Source: an uncultured Clostridia bacterium
Lineage (GTDB): Bacteria > Bacillota > Clostridia > TANB77 > CAG-508
Assembly (NCBI GenBank): GCA_944388605.1
Contig: CALXJJ010000003.1
Coordinates: forward strand, 3,091 to 67,090
Reading direction: 5' to 3'
Length of the DNA stretch: 64,000 nt
In this document: in pieces, positions 1 through 57,960 of the stretch
How the letters are laid out: each line of letters starts with the position of its first letter
Position numbering within the stretch: the stretch's first letter is position 1
Position numbers and translations under genes: made by a program
The notes under the pieces: model-generated
What the model saw: only the letters and a program-made list of their open reading frames with translations
Told to the model about the DNA's origin: nothing
Databases searched by the model: none

Positions 1-469
1 TTCTTTCCCGAAGTTCACTTTGAGTTAAATTTTCCTTAGTCTTTATTATTATATCTTCTCTATATTCAATATTTAATTTATATGCTAGATTCTTTGCTAT
101 TAAAGAACTTTGATTATATCCTCTTGTTTTTTTCTTTTTATTACTTATTGGTATTGGTAGAATTATATCATATTTTTTTATTTTTCTACATACTTTTTCG
201 TTTTTTAATAAAAAATTTACAAAAGTATTATATAAATATGCCTTATCATTAAATTTATATTCTAATATTTTATCTCTTATTAAGCCTTTATATTCAAATA
301 TTGAAATTAATTCCGTAAAATTTTTATTATAAATATCTATTATCTTTAATCTCTGCAAGTCTTTTAATCTTAAATAACATCTATTACATAAACTTTTTTC
401 ATTTATCTTTCCGCAAATTCCACATTTATATGGGTATACAATATCTAATATTCTTTTAAAAATGTTCAT
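1..469 (-). CDS. comFC: ComFC-like competence protein (double zinc-ribbon plus phosphoribosyltransferase-type domain); 5' part only, gene continues past window start
   Basis: Reverse-strand translation from the ATG at 469-467 gives MNIFKRILDIVYPYKCGICGKINEKSLCNRCYLRLKD...ILPIPISNKKKKTRGYNQSSLIAKNLAYKL. The CxxC..CxxC ribbon and the PRTase-like core are typical of ComFC. The start overlaps the recD2 stop (TAATG). Confidence 0.6.
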   Translation of the reverse strand, partial: MNIFKRILDIVYPYKCGICGKINEKSLCNRCYLRLKDLQRLKIIDIYNKNFTELISIFEYKGLIRDKILEYKFNDKAYLYNTFVNFLLKNEKVCRKIKKYDIILPIPISNKKKKTRGYNQSSLIAKNLAYKLNIEYREDIIIKTKENLTQSELRER

Positions 470-8609: not shown

Positions 8610-9935
8610 TTAATCTAAAAATCCTTTATAATGACGTACAGCTAATTGAGATTCCATTTGTTGCACTATTTCAATAGCAACACTAACTACAATAAGTATT
8701 GATGTTCCTCCAAATGCTAAATTTAAAGTTGTAAACCTTAAGAACATTGGAAGGATAGCAATTATTGCTAAGAATATTCCTCCATATAATGTTAATTTTG
8801 AAATTACATTTGATAAATATTCTGTTGTTGGTTTACCAGCTCTTATACCTGGTATAAATCCGCCATTTCTTTTAATATTATTTGATATATCTGCTGGATT
8901 AAATGTTGCATATGTATAAAAATATGTAAATCCTATAATTAATAACAAATATATTATTGCATTAGCAATTGTAAAACCTATTGCCACTTCTGAAGATGAT
9001 GTTGCAAGTGAGAAATTGTAAATTGTATACCAAAAACCTGATGTTCTTTCTGCTATATCTTTAATAAACAAAGGTATGATCATTGCAGGAAATGTCATAA
9101 ATGAAGAAGCAAATATTATTGGCATTACACCTGCCATTGCAAGTTTCAATGGTATATGTGTATTTTGTGCTCCTACCATCTTTCTTCCTACCACTCTTTT
9201 TGAATACTGTACAGGAATTCTTCTTTCTGCTTGTTGTACAAATACAACACCAGCAACTAATAATATAGCTCCTATAATAACTCCTATAGCTGTTAATAAT
9301 CCTGTAGTACTAAATGTTCCATTACCTGCAATCAAGTTCCAAATTGTAACTACAGCTGATGGAAGTCCTGCTATAATACCTACAAATATAATTAATGAAA
9401 TTCCATTACCTATTCCTTTATTTGTAATCTCTTCTCCTAACCACATTAAAATAGCTGTTCCTGCCATTAATGAAATTATAATTGTTATCGCTGTTCCAAT
9501 TCCTGTATCTAAGAATATTCCTGAATTTCTATAAGATAAATATATTCCTAATCCTTCTATTAAAGCTAATATTATAGTAAGAATCTTTGTATACAAACTC
9601 ATCTTTCTTCTTCCTACTTCTCCACCTTCTTTTGCTAATCTTTCTAATGCAGGAATTACAAATGTTAACAATTGAATTACAATTGATGCTGTAATATATG
9701 GAGTTATTGACATAGCAAATATTGAAAATCTAGAAAATGCTCCTCCTGATATTAAGTCAACAATTCCAGATAAACCACTTGCTGATGCATTCATAATTGT
9801 CGATAATTGAAATGTATCTACTCCAGGGATTGTTATATAACATCCTAAACGGAATATAACAATTAGTAACAATGTATATAATATTCTTTTTCTAACTTCA
9901 GGTGTTTTAATTGCATTTATTATCGTTTTAAACAA
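8610..9935 (-). CDS. secY: preprotein translocase subunit SecY
   Basis: 441 aa with 10 TM helices, in the expected rplO-secY-adk context. Confidence 0.95.
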   Translation of the reverse strand: MFKTIINAIKTPEVRKRILYTLLLIVIFRLGCYITIPGVDTFQLSTIMNASASGLSGIVDLISGGAFSRFSIFAMSITPYITASIVIQLLTFVIPALERLAKEGGEVGRRKMSLYTKILTIILALIEGLGIYLSYRNSGIFLDTGIGTAITIIISLMAGTAILMWLGEEITNKGIGNGISLIIFVGIIAGLPSAVVTIWNLIAGNGTFSTTGLLTAIGVIIGAILLVAGVVFVQQAERRIPVQYSKRVVGRKMVGAQNTHIPLKLAMAGVMPIIFASSFMTFPAMIIPLFIKDIAERTSGFWYTIYNFSLATSSSEVAIGFTIANAIIYLLLIIGFTYFYTYATFNPADISNNIKRNGGFIPGIRAGKPTTEYLSNVISKLTLYGGIFLAIIAILPMFLRFTTLNLAFGGTSILIVVSVAIEIVQQMESQLAVRHYKGFLD

Positions 9936-16456: not shown

Positions 16457-17284
16457 TTACTTTCTTCTCTTTACTATAAATTTATCAGATTTTTTATTTT
16501 TCTTTCTTGTTTTATATCCAAGTGCTGGTTTGCCCCAAGGTGTCATTGGTCCTGCATGACCGATAGGTGCTCTACCTTCACCACCACCATGTGGGTGATC
16601 TACTGGATTCATTACAGATCCTCTAACTTCTGGACGTTTACCCATATGTCTACTTCTTCCAGCCTTACCTAATTTTATGTTTTCATGATCTTGATTACCA
16701 ACTGTTCCAATTGTTGCTCTGCACACAACCATAATTAATCTCATTTCTCCTGAAGGAAGTCTAATATGTGCATATTTTCCTTCTTTTGCCATTAATTGAG
16801 CTTCCTGACCTGCTGCTCTTACTAATTTACCACCTTGCCCAGGATTTAACTCAATATTATGAATCATTGTACCAACTGGAATATTTTCTATTTTCATACA
16901 ATTTCCTGGTTTTATATCAGCTTTATCACCTGATACAACTTTATCTCCATCTTTCAAACCTAATGGTGCTAAAATATAGCTTAATGTTCCATCTTCATAT
17001 TTTATTAATGCTATATTTGCACTTCTATTTGGATCATATTCTATACCTACAACAGTAGCTACCATATCATCTTTTTTTCTCTTAAAATCAATTATTCTAT
17101 ATTTTTGTCTATTACCTCCACCTTGATGTCTTACAGTAATTCTACCATATGAATTTCTTCCTGAATTTTTCTTTTTTACATCCAATAAAGATTTTTCAGG
17201 TGTCTTTTTTGTTATTTCATCAAATGTAGAAACTGTCATGTTTCTTAATGATGGAGTAATTGGTCTAAATCTTTTTGTTCCCAT
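16457..17284 (-). CDS. rplB: 50S ribosomal protein L2
   Basis: 275 aa; [16 protein letters not shown] and the C-terminal [13 protein letters not shown]. Confidence 0.95.
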
Positions 17285-50987: not shown

Positions 50988-51764
50988 TTATTCTACTGGC
51001 ATTGCTGAACCATAATTTTCTGTAATCCATGAATTATAATCAAATGGTTCTACTGTTTCAGGCACACCATAATCTACTCCAAAAGTATCTACTGTTAAAC
51101 TTTTTATTACTGGTGGATTTACTGGTTTGTCTACACCCTCTTCAGCATTTTGATCTCTTGTTACAACTTCTACATTTTCAATTTGTTCTACTATATCCAT
51201 ACCTTCTATTACTTTACCAAATGCAGCATATAATCCATCTAAAGATTCATTATCTTCTGTCATAATAAAGAATTGTGAACCTCCTGAATTATATCCTTTT
51301 GTTGTTAATGTAGAACTTAAAGAACTATAATCAGCTCTTGCCATTGATATAACCCCTTTTTCATGTTTTAATGTGTTTTGATTAAATCCATTAGCAATAA
51401 ATTCTCCTTTTATATTATATTCTTCACTTCCACCATTATCTTTAATATCATTTAATGTTGGCGAACCTGTACCATCACCATTTTTATCTCCACCTTGGAT
51501 CATAAAATCTGGTATTGTCCTATGAAACACTTTTCCATTATAAAATCCTCTATTTGCTAAGCATATAAAATTTGCAACTGTATTAGGTGCCATATCTGGA
51601 TATAATTTTATTTTTATAGTTCCAAAATTTTCCACTTCCATTGTAGCTATCGGATTTTTTACTTCTTCTGTTAATTTTTTATAATAACCGTACCCTAAAT
51701 ACCCTAATGCACCTATAATAATTATTATTCCTATTATAATTAATATATTTTTTAAAATTTTCAT
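50988..51764 (-). CDS. membrane-anchored cyclophilin-type peptidyl-prolyl cis-trans isomerase
   Basis: N-terminal TM anchor, then a cyclophilin core (FHRTIPDFMIQGGD...GTGSP...). Confidence 0.85.
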   Translation of the reverse strand: MKILKNILIIIGIIIIIGALGYLGYGYYKKLTEEVKNPIATMEVENFGTIKIKLYPDMAPNTVANFICLANRGFYNGKVFHRTIPDFMIQGGDKNGDGTGSPTLNDIKDNGGSEEYNIKGEFIANGFNQNTLKHEKGVISMARADYSSLSSTLTTKGYNSGGSQFFIMTEDNESLDGLYAAFGKVIEGMDIVEQIENVEVVTRDQNAEEGVDKPVNPPVIKSLTVDTFGVDYGVPETVEPFDYNSWITENYGSAMPVE

Positions 51765-51782: not shown

Positions 51783-52859
51783 CTATAACATTACATTATC
51801 AAACACAAATTGTTCTTGCATTCTTTTTAAAGATTGTTTTATAGTTCTTGCTCTAATTTCACCTATTCCATCCACATCATCTAAAGCTTGTATATCTGCT
51901 ACTAATATATGTTGGAACGATTTAAAAGATTTTACTAGATTTACTACTATATTACTTGGCATTCTTGGAACTTTACTTAATATTCTGTATCCTCTTGTAT
52001 ATACTCCAACATCATCATAATTGTCAAAATCTTCATATCCTAATAATTTTGCTATTACTTGTGGTTTATTTAATTCCTCTAATTCTAACTGACTTATTTC
52101 TTCTAGCACCTTTTCTGTAGTGCGTTTTTTGCCTGTTGCAATATAATCTTTTATTATAAGTAGTTCCTCTTTTTCAAGTCCTCCAACTAATTCTTCTAAT
52201 TGCATTTCTACTAATCTTCCTTCTACTCCTAATTCATATATTGCTTTTTGCACTTCATTTACAACTTTCATTACCATCTCAGCTCTTTGAATAGCACTTA
52301 CTACATTTTCTAATGTAACTATATCATTAAATTCATATTCATTTAACAAACTTAATTTTCCATCAAATACTTTTTTATATTTTTCAACAGTTTGCAATGC
52401 TTGATTTGCTCTTGTTAATACTTTTGATGTATCTTCTAAAACATATCTGTAATTACCTTTAAATATTGTAATTATATTTCTCCTTTGAGATATACTTACA
52501 ACTAGTTCTCCTGTTTGTTTTGCTGTACGTTCTGCTGTTCTATGTCTTGTTCCAGTTTCTGCAGTTGAAATATCTGATGATGGAATAAGTTGTGCATTTG
52601 CATATAATATTTTCTTAAAATCTTTACTTAATATAATAGCACCATCCATTTTTGCTAATTCATATAATCTTGCAGGTGTATACTCTACATCTAAGCTAAA
52701 TCCACCATCTACTAAATCTAATACTTCTTTTGAATCACTAAATACTAATAGTCCCCCTGTTTTTGCCTTTAATATACTTTCTAATCCATCTCTTATAGCT
52801 GTTCCTGGTGCAATTAATTTTAAAACATCTGTAATAACATCGTTTTTACTATTTCTCAC
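51783..52859 (-). CDS. disA: DNA integrity scanning protein DisA (diadenylate cyclase)
   Basis: 358 aa; a DAC domain (DGAIIL...TGTRHRTAERTAKQTG) plus a C-terminal HhH domain, in radA-disA synteny. Confidence 0.9.
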   Translation of the reverse strand: MRNSKNDVITDVLKLIAPGTAIRDGLESILKAKTGGLLVFSDSKEVLDLVDGGFSLDVEYTPARLYELAKMDGAIILSKDFKKILYANAQLIPSSDISTAETGTRHRTAERTAKQTGELVVSISQRRNIITIFKGNYRYVLEDTSKVLTRANQALQTVEKYKKVFDGKLSLLNEYEFNDIVTLENVVSAIQRAEMVMKVVNEVQKAIYELGVEGRLVEMQLEELVGGLEKEELLIIKDYIATGKKRTTEKVLEEISQLELEELNKPQVIAKLLGYEDFDNYDDVGVYTRGYRILSKVPRMPSNIVVNLVKSFKSFQHILVADIQALDDVDGIGEIRARTIKQSLKRMQEQFVFDNVML

Positions 52860-52875: not shown

Positions 52876-54228
52876 CTATAATCCCAATTTATTAATTGCT
52901 TCCCCTATATTTCTAACGCTTATTATATCTAATTTATACTTTTCTTTCAAGAGTTTTTTATTATTTTCTGGAATTATACATTTTTTAAATCCCATTTTTT
53001 CACATTCCTTCAATCTTTTATCTATCATATTAATAGTTCTTATCTCACCTGTTAACCCTATTTCTCCCATAGCTACAACATCTTTTGGTATGCTTTTATT
53101 TTTAAAACTAGAAACCAATGCTAATGCAACTCCTAAATCAACTGCTGGTTCTGTTATTTTTATTCCACTTACTACATTAACATAGGCATCTTGATTACTA
53201 ATTGACATTTTTGCATGTTTTTCAAGAACTGCTATTAATAATGTAACTTTATTATAATCAATTCCATTTGCCACTCTTCTTGGTACTCCATAAACTGCAA
53301 ATGATGTTAATGCTTGTATTTCTATAAGTAATGGCCTAGTACCTTCCATACTAGCAACTATTATTGAGCCTGCTGGATTATCTTCTCTTTCTGAAATTAA
53401 AATAGAGGATGGGTTTGTAATTTCCACCATTCCTTCGTTTTGCATTTCAAACATACCTATCTCGTTTGTTGAACCAAAACGATTTTTCACACTTCGTATT
53501 ACTCTATATGAAAAATATCTTTCTCCTTCTATGTATAAAACTGCATCTACCATATGTTCTAAAACTCTTGGTCCTGCTATATTTCCATCTTTAGTAACAT
53601 GTCCTATTATTATTGTGGTAATAGCATTTGCTTTACATATTCTCATTATCCTTGCTGTTATTTCTCTTACTTGGCTTACAGTACCAGCTACTGATGTAAT
53701 TTCACTACTATACATTGTCTGTATTGAATCTATAATAACAAGCTTAGGATTCATATTTAGAATATTTTCTTCTATTATATCAATATCTGTTTCTGCTAAA
53801 AACATTATATTTTCATTTTTTATTTTCATCCTATCTGCTCTTATTTTTACTTGTTCTGCAGATTCTTCTCCAGAAACATATAATACTTTTCCATTTCCTT
53901 CAATTTTATCACATACTTCTAATATTAAAGTTGATTTCCCTATGCCAGGTTCTCCACCGATTAAAATAAGTGAGCCTTTTACTATCCCACCTCCCAAAAC
54001 TCTATCTAATTCTCCTATTTTTGTGCTTGTTCTTGCAATTTCCTTTCCCTCAATATTATTAAGTAAAGTTGGAACAGATTTAACTTTACTACTTGCTGTT
54101 TTTGTTGTATTTACTACTTTTTCTTCGTAAAAACTATTCCATTCATTACATGCAGGACATTTTCCTAACCATTTTGCAGATTCGTACCCACACTGATTAC
54201 AAACAAACACAGTCTTTGTTTTTGCCAT
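52876..54228 (-). CDS. radA: DNA repair protein RadA/Sms
   Basis: N-terminal C4 zinc finger (CNQCGYESAKWLGKCPACNEW), a RecA-like ATPase (GGEPGIGKST), a KNRFG motif and a Lon-like C-terminal domain. Confidence 0.9.
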   Translation of the reverse strand: MAKTKTVFVCNQCGYESAKWLGKCPACNEWNSFYEEKVVNTTKTASSKVKSVPTLLNNIEGKEIARTSTKIGELDRVLGGGIVKGSLILIGGEPGIGKSTLILEVCDKIEGNGKVLYVSGEESAEQVKIRADRMKIKNENIMFLAETDIDIIEENILNMNPKLVIIDSIQTMYSSEITSVAGTVSQVREITARIMRICKANAITTIIIGHVTKDGNIAGPRVLEHMVDAVLYIEGERYFSYRVIRSVKNRFGSTNEIGMFEMQNEGMVEITNPSSILISEREDNPAGSIIVASMEGTRPLLIEIQALTSFAVYGVPRRVANGIDYNKVTLLIAVLEKHAKMSISNQDAYVNVVSGIKITEPAVDLGVALALVSSFKNKSIPKDVVAMGEIGLTGEIRTINMIDKRLKECEKMGFKKCIIPENNKKLLKEKYKLDIISVRNIGEAINKLGL

Positions 54229-54477
54229 TTTTAATAATTAGCCTCCTTTTTTTGTATAATTGTTCAAAATATTCTCCACTTTTATTATCATTTTATCTAA
54301 ATATATAATGTTCATCTTTTTAAGCATTAAAATTATAATTGTTTAATTTTGATAACATTATAACACAGTTTTTTAAACAATTCTAGTTTATCTGTAGCTT
54401 TTCTCTACTTTTTAATATTTGCAATATTAAATTAATATATGGTAAGAAAAGTATAAAATTATAATACAAAAAAATAC

Positions 54478-54665
54478 CCCACGTTTAAGCCGTAAGATGA
54501 ATGAAATTTTAAGGACCTGCTTGCACAGGTGGGTGTCTTGTTGAATGCTTATGGGCTTCTTACTACTAAATAGTGTAAGCTTGCACGCCACATTCAAAGT
54601 CGGACTCCCTTTTAATATTTGTTGGTTCTAAAATTCCAGTCTACACGCACTTCGTAGGGAAATTA
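54478..54665. ncRNA. unclassified GC-rich structured element (orphan ncRNA or leader candidate)
   Basis: ~45-50% GC in a ~27% GC background. Hairpins include CCTGcttgcaCAGG, CTTACta...taGTGTAAG and long-range GAATG...CATTC / GCCG...CGGA pairings. No ORF overlaps it, and the downstream gene has its own consensus promoter. Confidence 0.35.
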
Positions 54666-54794
54666 ATAACTTATTTAATTGTTGTTTATATATTAACATA
54701 TATAAAATATATTTTCAAGTCTTATTTTATCCATTTTATTTAATTATATTCGTTTTGTTCTATTTTTCTTATCCTTTTACTACTTTATTTAATT

Positions 54795-54823
54795 TTTTCA
54801 TTGTTTGATTTTTTATTAATTTT
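54795..54823 (+). promoter_or_regulatory. consensus-like sigma-A promoter (TTGATT - 17 nt - TATAAT) for the 54845 gene
   Basis: TTGATTttttattaattttatgcTATAAT. Confidence 0.5.
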
Positions 54824-54844
54824 ATGCTATAATATTTTTAATTA

Positions 54845-55705
54845 TTGAGTATAAGGAGATTACTTATGAAAAAAACAAATGATAACAATAATAACAAAAA
54901 AATTTATTTTAAAGAAATTGTAAAATCTATTTTTTTGTTGTTATTTTTTTTCGCTCTATGCTATATTATTTTTTCTGTAATAAACACACATATTTTAGCT
55001 AAAGATTTTGCTTATGATATGACTAATAAATATAATTTTTATTCTGAAAATATTTTTAGTATTGATAAAATATATTTTTTCAGTAGTGCAACTGCTGATA
55101 ATAATGAACAAAATAAAGCTTTATGGGATTTAAATATTCACCAATTTACAGATATAGCATTATATATTAATAATAACAATTCTCAGAATAATTTCACATC
55201 TGAAAATACAATCAACTCATTATCAATAGAAAACATTAATTTTAATAATATATCAATTGGAGAGCCAAATTTGTATTTTAAAAGTATAACTAATTTTGGC
55301 AAATATATTAAAGATGATAATAATTTAATAAACAATAATTTATCTTTTGAAATACTAGATAATACAAATGAAATAAATTATGAACTTCCTCAAATTCACA
55401 ATACATGTGATGAACCAATTACCTTATCATATATCAATTCAAGTATAGTAAAAAATAAAATCATTACAGATATTTCTGAACCTTTAACTTTCAATGGTAG
55501 CTTATTGAAAAAATCTGGAATTACTATTTCAAGTATATCTGGGGTTGTATCTTTTGATATTCGTATTAAAACAAATTCTAACAAAACATTTGTTGCTAAT
55601 GTATATTTTAGTGTTCCTCTTGGACAAAATGATTCTAATAATGTTTATTCAGGTCAGTATATATATGAAACTAATCCTAATATTCGTTTTATAAGACAAG
55701 AATAA
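54845..55705 (+). CDS. hypothetical Asn-rich membrane-anchored protein
   Basis: 286 aa; an N-terminal signal anchor (IFLLLFFFALCYIIFSVI), then an N/S/T-rich ectodomain. No recognisable domain. Confidence 0.5.
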   Translation: MSIRRLLMKKTNDNNNNKKIYFKEIVKSIFLLLFFFALCYIIFSVINTHILAKDFAYDMTNKYNFYSENIFSIDKIYFFSSATADNNEQNKALWDLNIHQFTDIALYINNNNSQNNFTSENTINSLSIENINFNNISIGEPNLYFKSITNFGKYIKDDNNLINNNLSFEILDNTNEINYELPQIHNTCDEPITLSYINSSIVKNKIITDISEPLTFNGSLLKKSGITISSISGVVSFDIRIKTNSNKTFVANVYFSVPLGQNDSNNVYSGQYIYETNPNIRFIRQE

Positions 55706-55732: not shown

Positions 55733-56629
55733 TTATTCTTTTAAAATTATATCCCTTTTTATAAATCCATTTTCCATTATTCCTGTTCCTATAAAAATTT
55801 TTCTACTATATATTTTATATACTCCATCTACACTCTTTTCTGCTAAAATTCCTTTTTCTTTATAGTTTAACTTTACACCATTTAATAAAAGTTTTATCTT
55901 ATTTTCATTCATATACACTGAATATTTATCATTAAAAAACTCTTCTATACTTATAATGTGATTTTCTATTTCACTTAAATTTTCTATTGCTTGTTCTATA
56001 CTAAATTTTCCAACTGTTAATCTTCGCAATTCTTTCATATAGCCAATAGTTCCTAGTTTTACTGCTATATCTTCACATAATGACCTAATATATGTACCTT
56101 TTGAGCAATGAACTTTAAATACTATTATTTCATTGTATTCATCTATTTGTTTTAATTCTATACTATATATTTCAATATTTCTCTTTTTATCAGCAATATT
56201 TATTTTTTGATTTTTTCTTGCATACTCATATAATTTCTTACCATTTATTTTTAATGCAGAGTAAATTGGTGGTATTTGTTCTTGTACACCTATAAAACTA
56301 TTTAAAATACTAATTACATTTTTTTGTTTAAATATTTCTTTACTAACCGTTTTTTCTTCTAAAATCCTACCTTCACTATCCATAGTATCTGTTTTTATTC
56401 CTAGCTGTAATGTAGCAATATATGTTTTATCATGCTCTATTAAATATTTACTCAATTTAGTACCTTTATTTATTAATAATGGTAATAATCCTGTTGCATT
56501 CGGATCTAAAGTTCCTGTATGTCCTACTGTTTTTGTATTTAAAATTTTTTTTACTTTTCTTACAATATCATAAGAAGTAACTCCTTTAGGTTTATCAACT
56601 AATAAAATTCCATCCATACTTAATAGCAT
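55733..56629 (-). CDS. truB: tRNA pseudouridine(55) synthase
   Basis: 298 aa; the catalytic Asp motif (GHTGTLDPNATGLL). Confidence 0.9.
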   Translation of the reverse strand: MLLSMDGILLVDKPKGVTSYDIVRKVKKILNTKTVGHTGTLDPNATGLLPLLINKGTKLSKYLIEHDKTYIATLQLGIKTDTMDSEGRILEEKTVSKEIFKQKNVISILNSFIGVQEQIPPIYSALKINGKKLYEYARKNQKINIADKKRNIEIYSIELKQIDEYNEIIVFKVHCSKGTYIRSLCEDIAVKLGTIGYMKELRRLTVGKFSIEQAIENLSEIENHIISIEEFFNDKYSVYMNENKIKLLLNGVKLNYKEKGILAEKSVDGVYKIYSRKIFIGTGIMENGFIKRDIILKE

Positions 56630-56632
56630 TCC

Positions 56633-57589
56633 TTATTTTAATTGTAATTTAATTTGGGTTACTAATTTTTCTTTTATTTGATTAATATCTCCCTGCATCA
56701 TACATCCTGCTGCTTTTGTGTGACCTCCACCACCATATATTAGACACACATCAGATACATTAACATAATCATTTGATCTTAAAGATGCTTTTATTCCTTT
56801 ATCAGTATCTCTTAGGAAAATAGAAACTTCTACTCCTTCAACACTTCTACCTATTTCAACAATACCTTCATGATCTCCACTTTTTGCTTCATATTTTTCT
56901 TCATCCTCTTTTGTTATATATGTAAAGGCAATTTTTCCATCACATAAAAATTCTATTCTATCTATAGCTATTCTTGTCAATTCAAAATTTGCTCTCGTTT
57001 TTGTATTCATAGCTTTTTTATATATGTCTGATACTAATACCCCTTTATTCAATAACCATGCAACAAATTCAAATGTCTCTGCTGTAACACTAGAATATTG
57101 GAATCCACCAGTATCTGTAATTATGCCAGTTAATATACAAGTTCCTATATCCTTTGTTACTTCCATTCTCCAACTTTCTAATAAAACTAATATTACTTGT
57201 GTGCAAGATGGAGCATTTGGAATTACATAATTATAATCTCCAAACATTGTATTTGTACTATGATGATCAATAACAACTTTAGATTTTGCATTTTCAAAAT
57301 ATTTTCCAAAACCATTAAGCATTTTTATTGTTGCTGAATCAACTGAAATAGCTAAATCATATTGTTTAATATCAGATTCTACTTTTATATTATTTATTTC
57401 TGGTAAAAATTCAAATGTTTTTGAATATTCTGGTATTATTATATCGGGATTTTTTCCATAATTTTTTAGTGCTATATACATAGCAATAGCACTACCCATT
57501 GCATCTCCATCTGGGTTTTCATGAGTCAGTATAATGATAGAATTAGCCTTATCTATCTCTTCTAATATTTTATCCATTGTCATATACAT
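56633..57589 (-). CDS. nrnA: DHH/DHHA1 family bifunctional oligoribonuclease / pAp phosphatase
   Basis: 318 aa; the DHH motif region (HENPDGDAMGS; VIDHH) and DHHA1 (GGGGH). Confidence 0.8.
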   Translation of the reverse strand: MYMTMDKILEEIDKANSIIILTHENPDGDAMGSAIAMYIALKNYGKNPDIIIPEYSKTFEFLPEINNIKVESDIKQYDLAISVDSATIKMLNGFGKYFENAKSKVVIDHHSTNTMFGDYNYVIPNAPSCTQVILVLLESWRMEVTKDIGTCILTGIITDTGGFQYSSVTAETFEFVAWLLNKGVLVSDIYKKAMNTKTRANFELTRIAIDRIEFLCDGKIAFTYITKEDEEKYEAKSGDHEGIVEIGRSVEGVEVSIFLRDTDKGIKASLRSNDYVNVSDVCLIYGGGGHTKAAGCMMQGDINQIKEKLVTQIKLQLK

Positions 57590-57594
57590 TCCCC

Positions 57595-57960
57595 CTATTC
57601 TTCACTTTTTTTCAAGTCTTCTATAACTTTTTCTATTCTTGCTCCATATTCCATAGAATCATCTTTTTCAAATATTAGTTCTGGTGTGATTCTTAAATTT
57701 ATTCTTTTTGCTATTAAAGTTCTTACAAAACCTGCAGATCTCTTCAAAGTATCTATAGTATCTTTTTCACTCTTTGAATTCAAAATACTAACATATACTT
57801 TTGCATATTTTAAATCTGGAGTAATTTTTACTTTAGTTACACTTATTAATCCTGTTAGATTAGGATCTTTTATTTCATAACTAATTATTTGACTTAATTC
57901 TTTTCTAAGCTCTTCATCAATACGTCCTAGCCTAGCTTGGTTTTTCCCCATATTAATCAC
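57595..57960 (-). CDS. rbfA: ribosome-binding factor A
   Basis: 121 aa, in infB-rbfA synteny. Confidence 0.9.
   Translation of the reverse strand: MINMGKNQARLGRIDEELRKELSQIISYEIKDPNLTGLISVTKVKITPDLKYAKVYVSILNSKSEKDTIDTLKRSAGFVRTLIAKRINLRITPELIFEKDDSMEYGARIEKVIEDLKKSEE

Follow-up and report, generated by a model that had tools for sequence, protein, structure and literature searches.

6S RNA imitates an open promoter and lodges in the active site of the sigma-70 or sigma-A holoenzyme, and the polymerase is released when a short pRNA is transcribed from the 5' half of the 6S bubble (PMC8876501). The 6S-1 RNA of B. subtilis (bsrA, RF00013) is a rod of about 190 nt that consists of a closing stem, helix P2, a central bubble, and an apical arm. 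Its free form already has a small hairpin on the 3' side of the bubble (PMC8876501); the RNA is made with an 11-nt leader that is trimmed by RNase J1 (PMC10578484), and its pRNA, 5'-GUUCGGUCAAAACU, starts at C40 (PMC3923129, PMC8876501). The free 6S RNA of E. coli has no structure on this side of the bubble, where a hairpin of 9 bp appears only once pRNA has been made (PMC8876501). The 6S RNA of C. difficile sediments together with RNA polymerase, and pRNAs arise from its central bubble (PMC10117727), which supports the same function in Clostridia.

We examined an element upstream of radA in a 64-kb stretch of DNA (hereafter, the window). Its GC content is 27%, and it comes from an uncultured lineage of the gut that belongs, like C. 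difficile, to the Clostridia. The window RNA shares the rod layout of B. subtilis 6S-1, and it shares its family and presumably the open-promoter mimicry with the E. coli RNA (ssrS). The coordinates of the RNA, its substructures, the transcription signals, and the neighboring genes are collected in Table 1.

A minus-strand 6S RNA gene upstream of radA

A scan of the whole window with Rfam 15 returned RF00013 (6S / SsrS RNA) as the sole match at this locus, with 104.1 bits (gathering score, 46.4), an E-value of 6.8e-20, and coverage of the model from end to end (1-187 of 187). Permissive scans of the 700-nt neighborhood and of the whole window (E <= 0.1) gave nothing beyond 6S except a tRNA-Trp at 23541, and no riboswitch or leader family matched at the 6S locus in Rfam, permissive E-values included. 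The element is a canonical 6S RNA gene (ssrS) on the minus strand; it belongs to a curated, long-known family and is no new element, and standard annotation pipelines would call it as RF00013 automatically. The original prediction, which had asked for a cmscan search, described a regulatory RNA of 6S-like, imperfect-duplex architecture, and this is borne out by a full-length match to that one family. The accompanying label of "orphan" does not apply to a member of RF00013, and the strand, which had been left unstated, is minus and co-oriented with radA. The explanation as a whole, comprising a minus-strand ssrS gene with its own promoter, the 6S rod fold, and a function assigned by inference from the family, is in our judgment almost certainly right.

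The element stands out from its surroundings in base composition. Positions 54478-54665 have 41.0% GC; the window as a whole has 27.2%, and the flanks have 17.3% on the left (54229-54471) and 14.4% on the right (54664-54865). Among all 192-nt windows of the 64 kb, just 0.4% reach a value of 41%. The elevated GC content that first drew attention to the element is therefore real, although the figure of 45-50% then given was too high. The case shows that, where a genome has 27% GC, a GC island can be relied on as a sign of a structured RNA gene.

Table 1. Positions of the 6S RNA, its substructures, nearby transcription signals, and neighboring genes in the window.
Feature	RNA positions (nt)	Window positions	Strand	Basis or remark
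6S RNA (ssrS)		54472-54663	-	192 nt, 41% GC; Rfam model limits
6S RNA layout				closing stem, helix P2, central bubble, apical arm; Rfam, MFE, covariation in 13 homologues
Closing stem	5-19 with 171-187		-	MFE structure
Helix P2	26-36 with 152-162	54628-54638 with 54502-54512	-	MFE and Rfam alignment
Helix P2 span, including the apical arm between its strands		54502-54638	-	lies between closing stem and bubble
Central bubble, 5' half	37-54	54610-54627	-	AACCAACAAAUAUUAAAA; unpaired in MFE structure
Small hairpin, 3' half of central bubble	134-149	54515-54530	-	ACCUGU-GCAA-GCAGGU; MFE
Promoter-like site of 6S gene		54690-54718	-	TTGAAA, 17 nt, TGtTAATAT (extended -10); consensus scan
U-run AUUUUUUUGU		54466-54475	-	immediately 3' of closing stem; putative intrinsic termination point
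Extended -10-like TGTTATAAT		54357-54365	-	minus-strand reading; spacer between 6S and radA, outside the RNA
rbfA		57595-57960	-	Pfam
DHH/DHHA1 NrnA-like protein		56633-57589	-	Pfam
truB		55733-56629	-	Pfam
279-aa protein (unk279)		54866-55705	+	no Pfam match
radA		52876-54228	-	Pfam
disA		51783-52859	-	Pfam
Cyclophilin-type PPIase		50988-51764	-	Pfam

Fold and conservation of the RNA

The minus-strand RNA folds with an MFE of -52.3 kcal/mol (z = -3.25), a value equaled by none of 200 shuffles, whereas the fold of the plus strand is near chance (z = -1.1), so that better-than-chance folding is restricted to the minus strand. Both the MFE and the centroid structures are the typical 6S rod. At its base, the closing stem pairs CCCCACG (54478-84) with CGTAGGG (54653-59), and the Rfam alignment contains a single non-canonical A-C mismatch within P2. 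Beyond the bubble, the MFE structure has a GGG/CCC clamp and an apical arm, in which CATTCAA (54591-97) pairs with TTGAATG (54541-47) and which is capped by a CUUAC...GUAAG hairpin. The small 3'-bubble hairpin follows directly after the invariant CACCCACCU. When the transcript is extended to 54466-54683, the fold is unchanged (z = -3.34). The two hairpins noted from the letters alone, CCTG-cttgca-CAGG at 54516-54529 (the 3'-bubble hairpin) and CTTAC...GTGTAAG at 54559-54579 (apical), are both real helices. The proposal that the two ends of the element pair over a long range also holds, in the form of the CCCCACG/CGTAGGG closing stem, but the partners that had been suggested, GAATG (54499-503) and CATTC (54591-95), are not joined in the consensus structure.

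The predicted 3'-bubble hairpin is a point of likeness to B. subtilis 6S-1, where the hairpin is likewise preformed, and a point of difference from E. coli 6S, since in the window RNA its 6 bp are predicted to form in the free RNA. A collapse helix in the central bubble has been described for B. subtilis 6S-1, whereas none is predicted for the window RNA by constrained folding with nt 30-43 (the pRNA footprint) blocked.

Because 80 radA loci fetched from related genomes lacked a 6S gene (see below), we sought covariation data in metagenomes. A motif scan with GGGAGYC-N55-85-CACCCACCTG returned 120 stretches, only about 15 of which are 6S genes, most of the rest being chance matches in high-GC soil contigs. 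The scan yielded 12 full-length homologues, all above the Rfam 6S threshold (67-105 bits), beside one duplicate (L177) and one 3'-truncated copy (L114). The close homologues come from low-GC contigs and comprise four full-length sequences (L098, L130, L086, and L123) together with L114, which is cut at its 3' end; the remaining eight full-length homologues are more distant. A MAFFT alignment of 13 sequences (A1) has a mean column identity of 62%.

The closing stem, the apical arm, the clamp, and the 3'-bubble hairpin all reappear in the RNAalifold consensus of these 13 sequences. Standard pairs occupy 91.8% of cells, a share that falls to 81% in column shuffles and to about 39-46% once partners are displaced by 1-3 columns; compensatory double changes are found in 17 of 37 pairs; and the covariation score is 0.396, as compared with 0.201 in shuffles and 0.06-0.125 with displaced partners. 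On any of five measures, the observed value was matched by none of 500 shuffles. The motifs that flank the central bubble, GGGAG and CACCCACCUG, are invariant, and of the three GGGAG/CACCC pairs (columns 58-60 with 142-144) two are kept in all 13 sequences and the third in 11. In consensus helix 6, the 3'-bubble hairpin, 93.6% of cells are paired and the changes are one-sided only. Column scoring was unsuited to P2, whose 3' strand MAFFT misaligns owing to a 2-nt insertion in the close group; P2 was therefore assessed sequence by sequence by duplex prediction (duplexfold). The P2 duplex is present in all 13 homologues (z between -2.0 and -5.6) despite their differing sequences, as in UUUUAGAACC/GGUCCUUAAAA, GUUUUGAGCC/GGUUCAAAAC, and UUUGGGCC/GGCCGAAU.

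Predicted pRNA template and transcription signals

The template segment A30-C43 of the window RNA, AUUUUAGAACCAAC, aligns with the template of B. subtilis 6S-1, and C43 is equivalent to B. subtilis C40 by its position after the GAgCC element. The homologous template site is GAACCAAC, and at the position of C43 (A1 column 46) 11 of the 13 homologues carry a C. In E. coli, the pRNA starts at U44, within GAGCCGA-U44, which lies at the same place as C43 after the GAgCC element and with respect to the GAGCC/GGUUC helix. Since the template aligns with both B. subtilis C40 and E. coli U44, pRNA synthesis is predicted to start at C43 (window position 54621) and to give the product 5'-GUUGGUUCUAAAAU, which is identical to plus-strand positions 54621-54634; the plus strand from 54621 reads GUUGGUUC... 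The predicted product resembles the B. subtilis pRNA in being a G-initiated RNA encoded 3' of a GAnCC element, and a G start on a C43 template would fit the preference of the B. subtilis sigma-A polymerase for GTP (PMC3923129).

The promoter-like site upstream of the 6S gene matches the consensus at 9 of 12 positions, and the AT-rich region contains 11 such matches where 6.9 are expected. An extended -10 element, TATGnTAATATA, with a TTGnAA -35 element occurs at the same place in three close homologues (L130, L123, and L086) and in a weaker form in a fourth (L098). At the other end, a terminator-like structure was called at 54498-54476 plus tail on the minus strand, and in each of five close homologues the closing stem is followed by a U-rich tail. 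The conserved promoter and U-tail are consensus matches in AT-rich DNA and, as such, are supportive, short of proof, of a putative independent transcription unit. From the placement of the promoter, we infer that 6S transcription starts near 54683, with about 20 nt of leader (54664-54683) ahead of the Rfam 5' end; a short leader ahead of the mature 5' end is a trait of B. subtilis 6S-1 and apparently of the window RNA as well.

Taken together with the family function, these features suggest the following mechanism. Transcription would begin at the gene's own sigma-A-type extended -10 promoter and end at the U-run, and the short AT-rich leader might be trimmed later. The folded RNA would then imitate an open promoter and enter the active site of the housekeeping RNA polymerase holoenzyme, which it would hold back in stationary phase or under nutrient limitation. 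On outgrowth, the polymerase would use 6S as a template, initiating at C43 on the 5' side of the bubble, and pRNA synthesis would unwind P2, refold the 6S RNA, and free the polymerase.

In the spacer between 6S and radA, the extended -10-like TGTTATAAT at 54357-54365, which the two-hexamer scan did not pick up, is probably a separate radA promoter, and radA-disA would then not depend on read-through from 6S. In E. coli, ssrS and ygfA share a transcript, and the 6S RNA is processed by RNase E/G. An analogous arrangement can be proposed here, in which read-through of a weak 6S terminator would couple radA-disA, the operon for DNA repair and the c-di-AMP checkpoint, to a strong, growth-phase-regulated 6S promoter, but we regard it as unlikely; unlike ssrS-ygfA, the window 6S gene likely has a U-run terminator and a separate promoter downstream of it.

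Genomic neighborhood and alternative readings

In the window, 6S is flanked by truB/unk279 and radA, whereas in lactic acid bacteria its neighbors are rarA and upsA (PMC8414754). The spacer to the co-oriented radA gene comprises 243 AT-rich bases. At least 23 metagenome contigs encode the exact RadA protein of the window, and among them L081-L084 share the window's gene order; in these four the intergenic region 54229-54865 is identical save for three SNPs in L082, none of which falls in the 6S RNA. All four contigs are of one species; the three SNPs are their sole differences across the 637-nt intergenic region, and the RNA itself is invariant. The L082 SNPs (window positions 54819, 54803, and 54799) lie within or beside the promoter that serves the 279-aa gene on the plus strand.

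At the species level, the closest genomes are MAGs of uncultured Clostridia from the gut, among them Clostridium sp. CAG:492, CAG:245, and CAG:273. The 80 loci fetched from related genomes, whose RadA proteins are 71-78% identical to that of the window by tblastn, all encode RadA; 79 show DisA and most also the PPIase. No 6S gene was detected within 2.5 kb of radA-disA in these relatives, by Rfam on 20 loci and by nhmmer on all 80. In the two relatives in which the region upstream of radA was inspected, it is occupied by a gene for a GH15 glycosyl hydrolase (L038, 74-2449; L003, 517-2481), and clpC/ctsR are absent there; the remark that this position belongs to clpC/ctsR in other Firmicutes is therefore inapplicable to this clade. 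In L038, a gene for an IS200-like Y1 transposase lies between the GH15 gene and radA, which hints at how the radA junction becomes rearranged.

The metagenomic homologues place 6S beside other genes. The order is truB-6S-prmC in L098 and L123, continuing into whiA in L098; the L086 contig begins at the 6S gene and runs on into prmC-whiA; and a homologue of the 279-aa gene adjoins 6S in L114 and L130, as it does in the window. In the window itself, proS-prmC-whiA (23820-26953) and tRNA-Trp lie 30 kb away. Judged by these gene orders, the 6S gene sits at a synteny breakpoint at which radA-disA-PPIase follows instead of prmC-whiA, and 6S is stably linked to the truB side, a lineage-specific rearrangement having placed radA-disA downstream of it. 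On the same reading of gene order, 6S travels independently of radA, its close relatives having prmC-whiA beside it. The rearranged neighborhood is the only mildly unusual feature of this 6S gene, and the shift from 6S-prmC in relatives to 6S-radA here is a minor rearrangement marker that implies no new biological principle.

This independence from radA bears directly on whether the element could be a cis-acting 5' leader of radA-disA, that is, a riboswitch or attenuator that has a 6S-like fold and uses the U-run as a conditional terminator. The co-orientation of the element with radA at a distance of 243 nt and the U-run directly after its last stem would suit such a role. A leader, however, is expected to show conserved linkage to the downstream gene, and the linkage is not conserved: homologues of the element precede prmC-whiA in relatives, and 80 genomes retain the radA-disA-PPIase cluster with no such element within 2.5 kb, which argues against a radA leader. 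With Rfam matching 6S and no riboswitch or leader family, and with an extended -10-like element available to radA within the spacer, we consider this reading extremely unlikely. The original prediction was right that the element is not the leader of the plus-strand 279-aa gene. A relic of degraded coding sequence, which that prediction had itself raised as a possible refutation and which would account for the GC excess, has a negligible probability. It had been stated that no ORF overlaps the element, and a mechanical 56-aa ORF with a TTG start does overlap it (54427-54597, minus strand); this ORF has no Pfam match, however, and the island matches an RNA covariance model at E = 7e-20, with substitutions among the homologues that are compensatory in helices rather than codon-patterned.

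The remaining alternative accepts a polymerase-binding RNA but assigns it an altered function, as a divergent 6S-2-type paralogue or another RNA-polymerase-binding RNA with, for example, poor pRNA synthesis or a different growth-phase behavior. Some Firmicutes, including Clostridium acetobutylicum, do have two 6S copies (PMC8414754), and our inspection covered 64 kb of the genome. The initiating nucleotide predicted from template C43 is nevertheless a G, as in 6S-1, whereas 6S-2 initiates with A (PMC3923129); the Rfam score of the window RNA is as high as those of the other homologues; and the genomes of the relatives are small (about 1.6 Mb), which makes a single 6S copy more likely. We therefore hold a paralogue of altered function to be very unlikely and favor a canonical 6S RNA.

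With the canonical 6S reading, this uncultured Clostridia lineage of the gut, which is low in GC, now has a 6S gene of known position and strand and with a predicted pRNA start, which should aid both MAG annotation and the analysis of metatranscriptomes in this lineage. 6S RNA is usually among the most abundant transcripts in metatranscriptomes.

Several further observations concern other parts of the window and the metagenomic contigs. The 279-aa ORF on the plus strand (54866-55705) has a strong Shine-Dalgarno sequence and a hydrophobic N-terminus and no Pfam match, and it is preceded by a consensus extended -10 promoter at 54805-54833 (TTGATT-17-TGnTATAAT, plus strand); a promoter for this gene had been anticipated, and it lies about 10 nt from the position first assigned to it. 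The strongest GC island of the window, at 16481-16681, reaches up to 51% GC in 120 nt. It was considered as an orphan RNA and rejected, since it lies inside a 275-aa ORF (16457-17284, minus strand) and its composition is therefore that of coding sequence; this ORF adjoins one of 91 aa. Finally, a 32%-GC metagenomic contig unrelated to the window (L094) carries Staphylococcus sRNA S35 (RF02894, 83.8 bits) at 9160-9352 on the plus strand, about 200 nt from a 6S gene at 8775-8965 on the opposite, minus strand.
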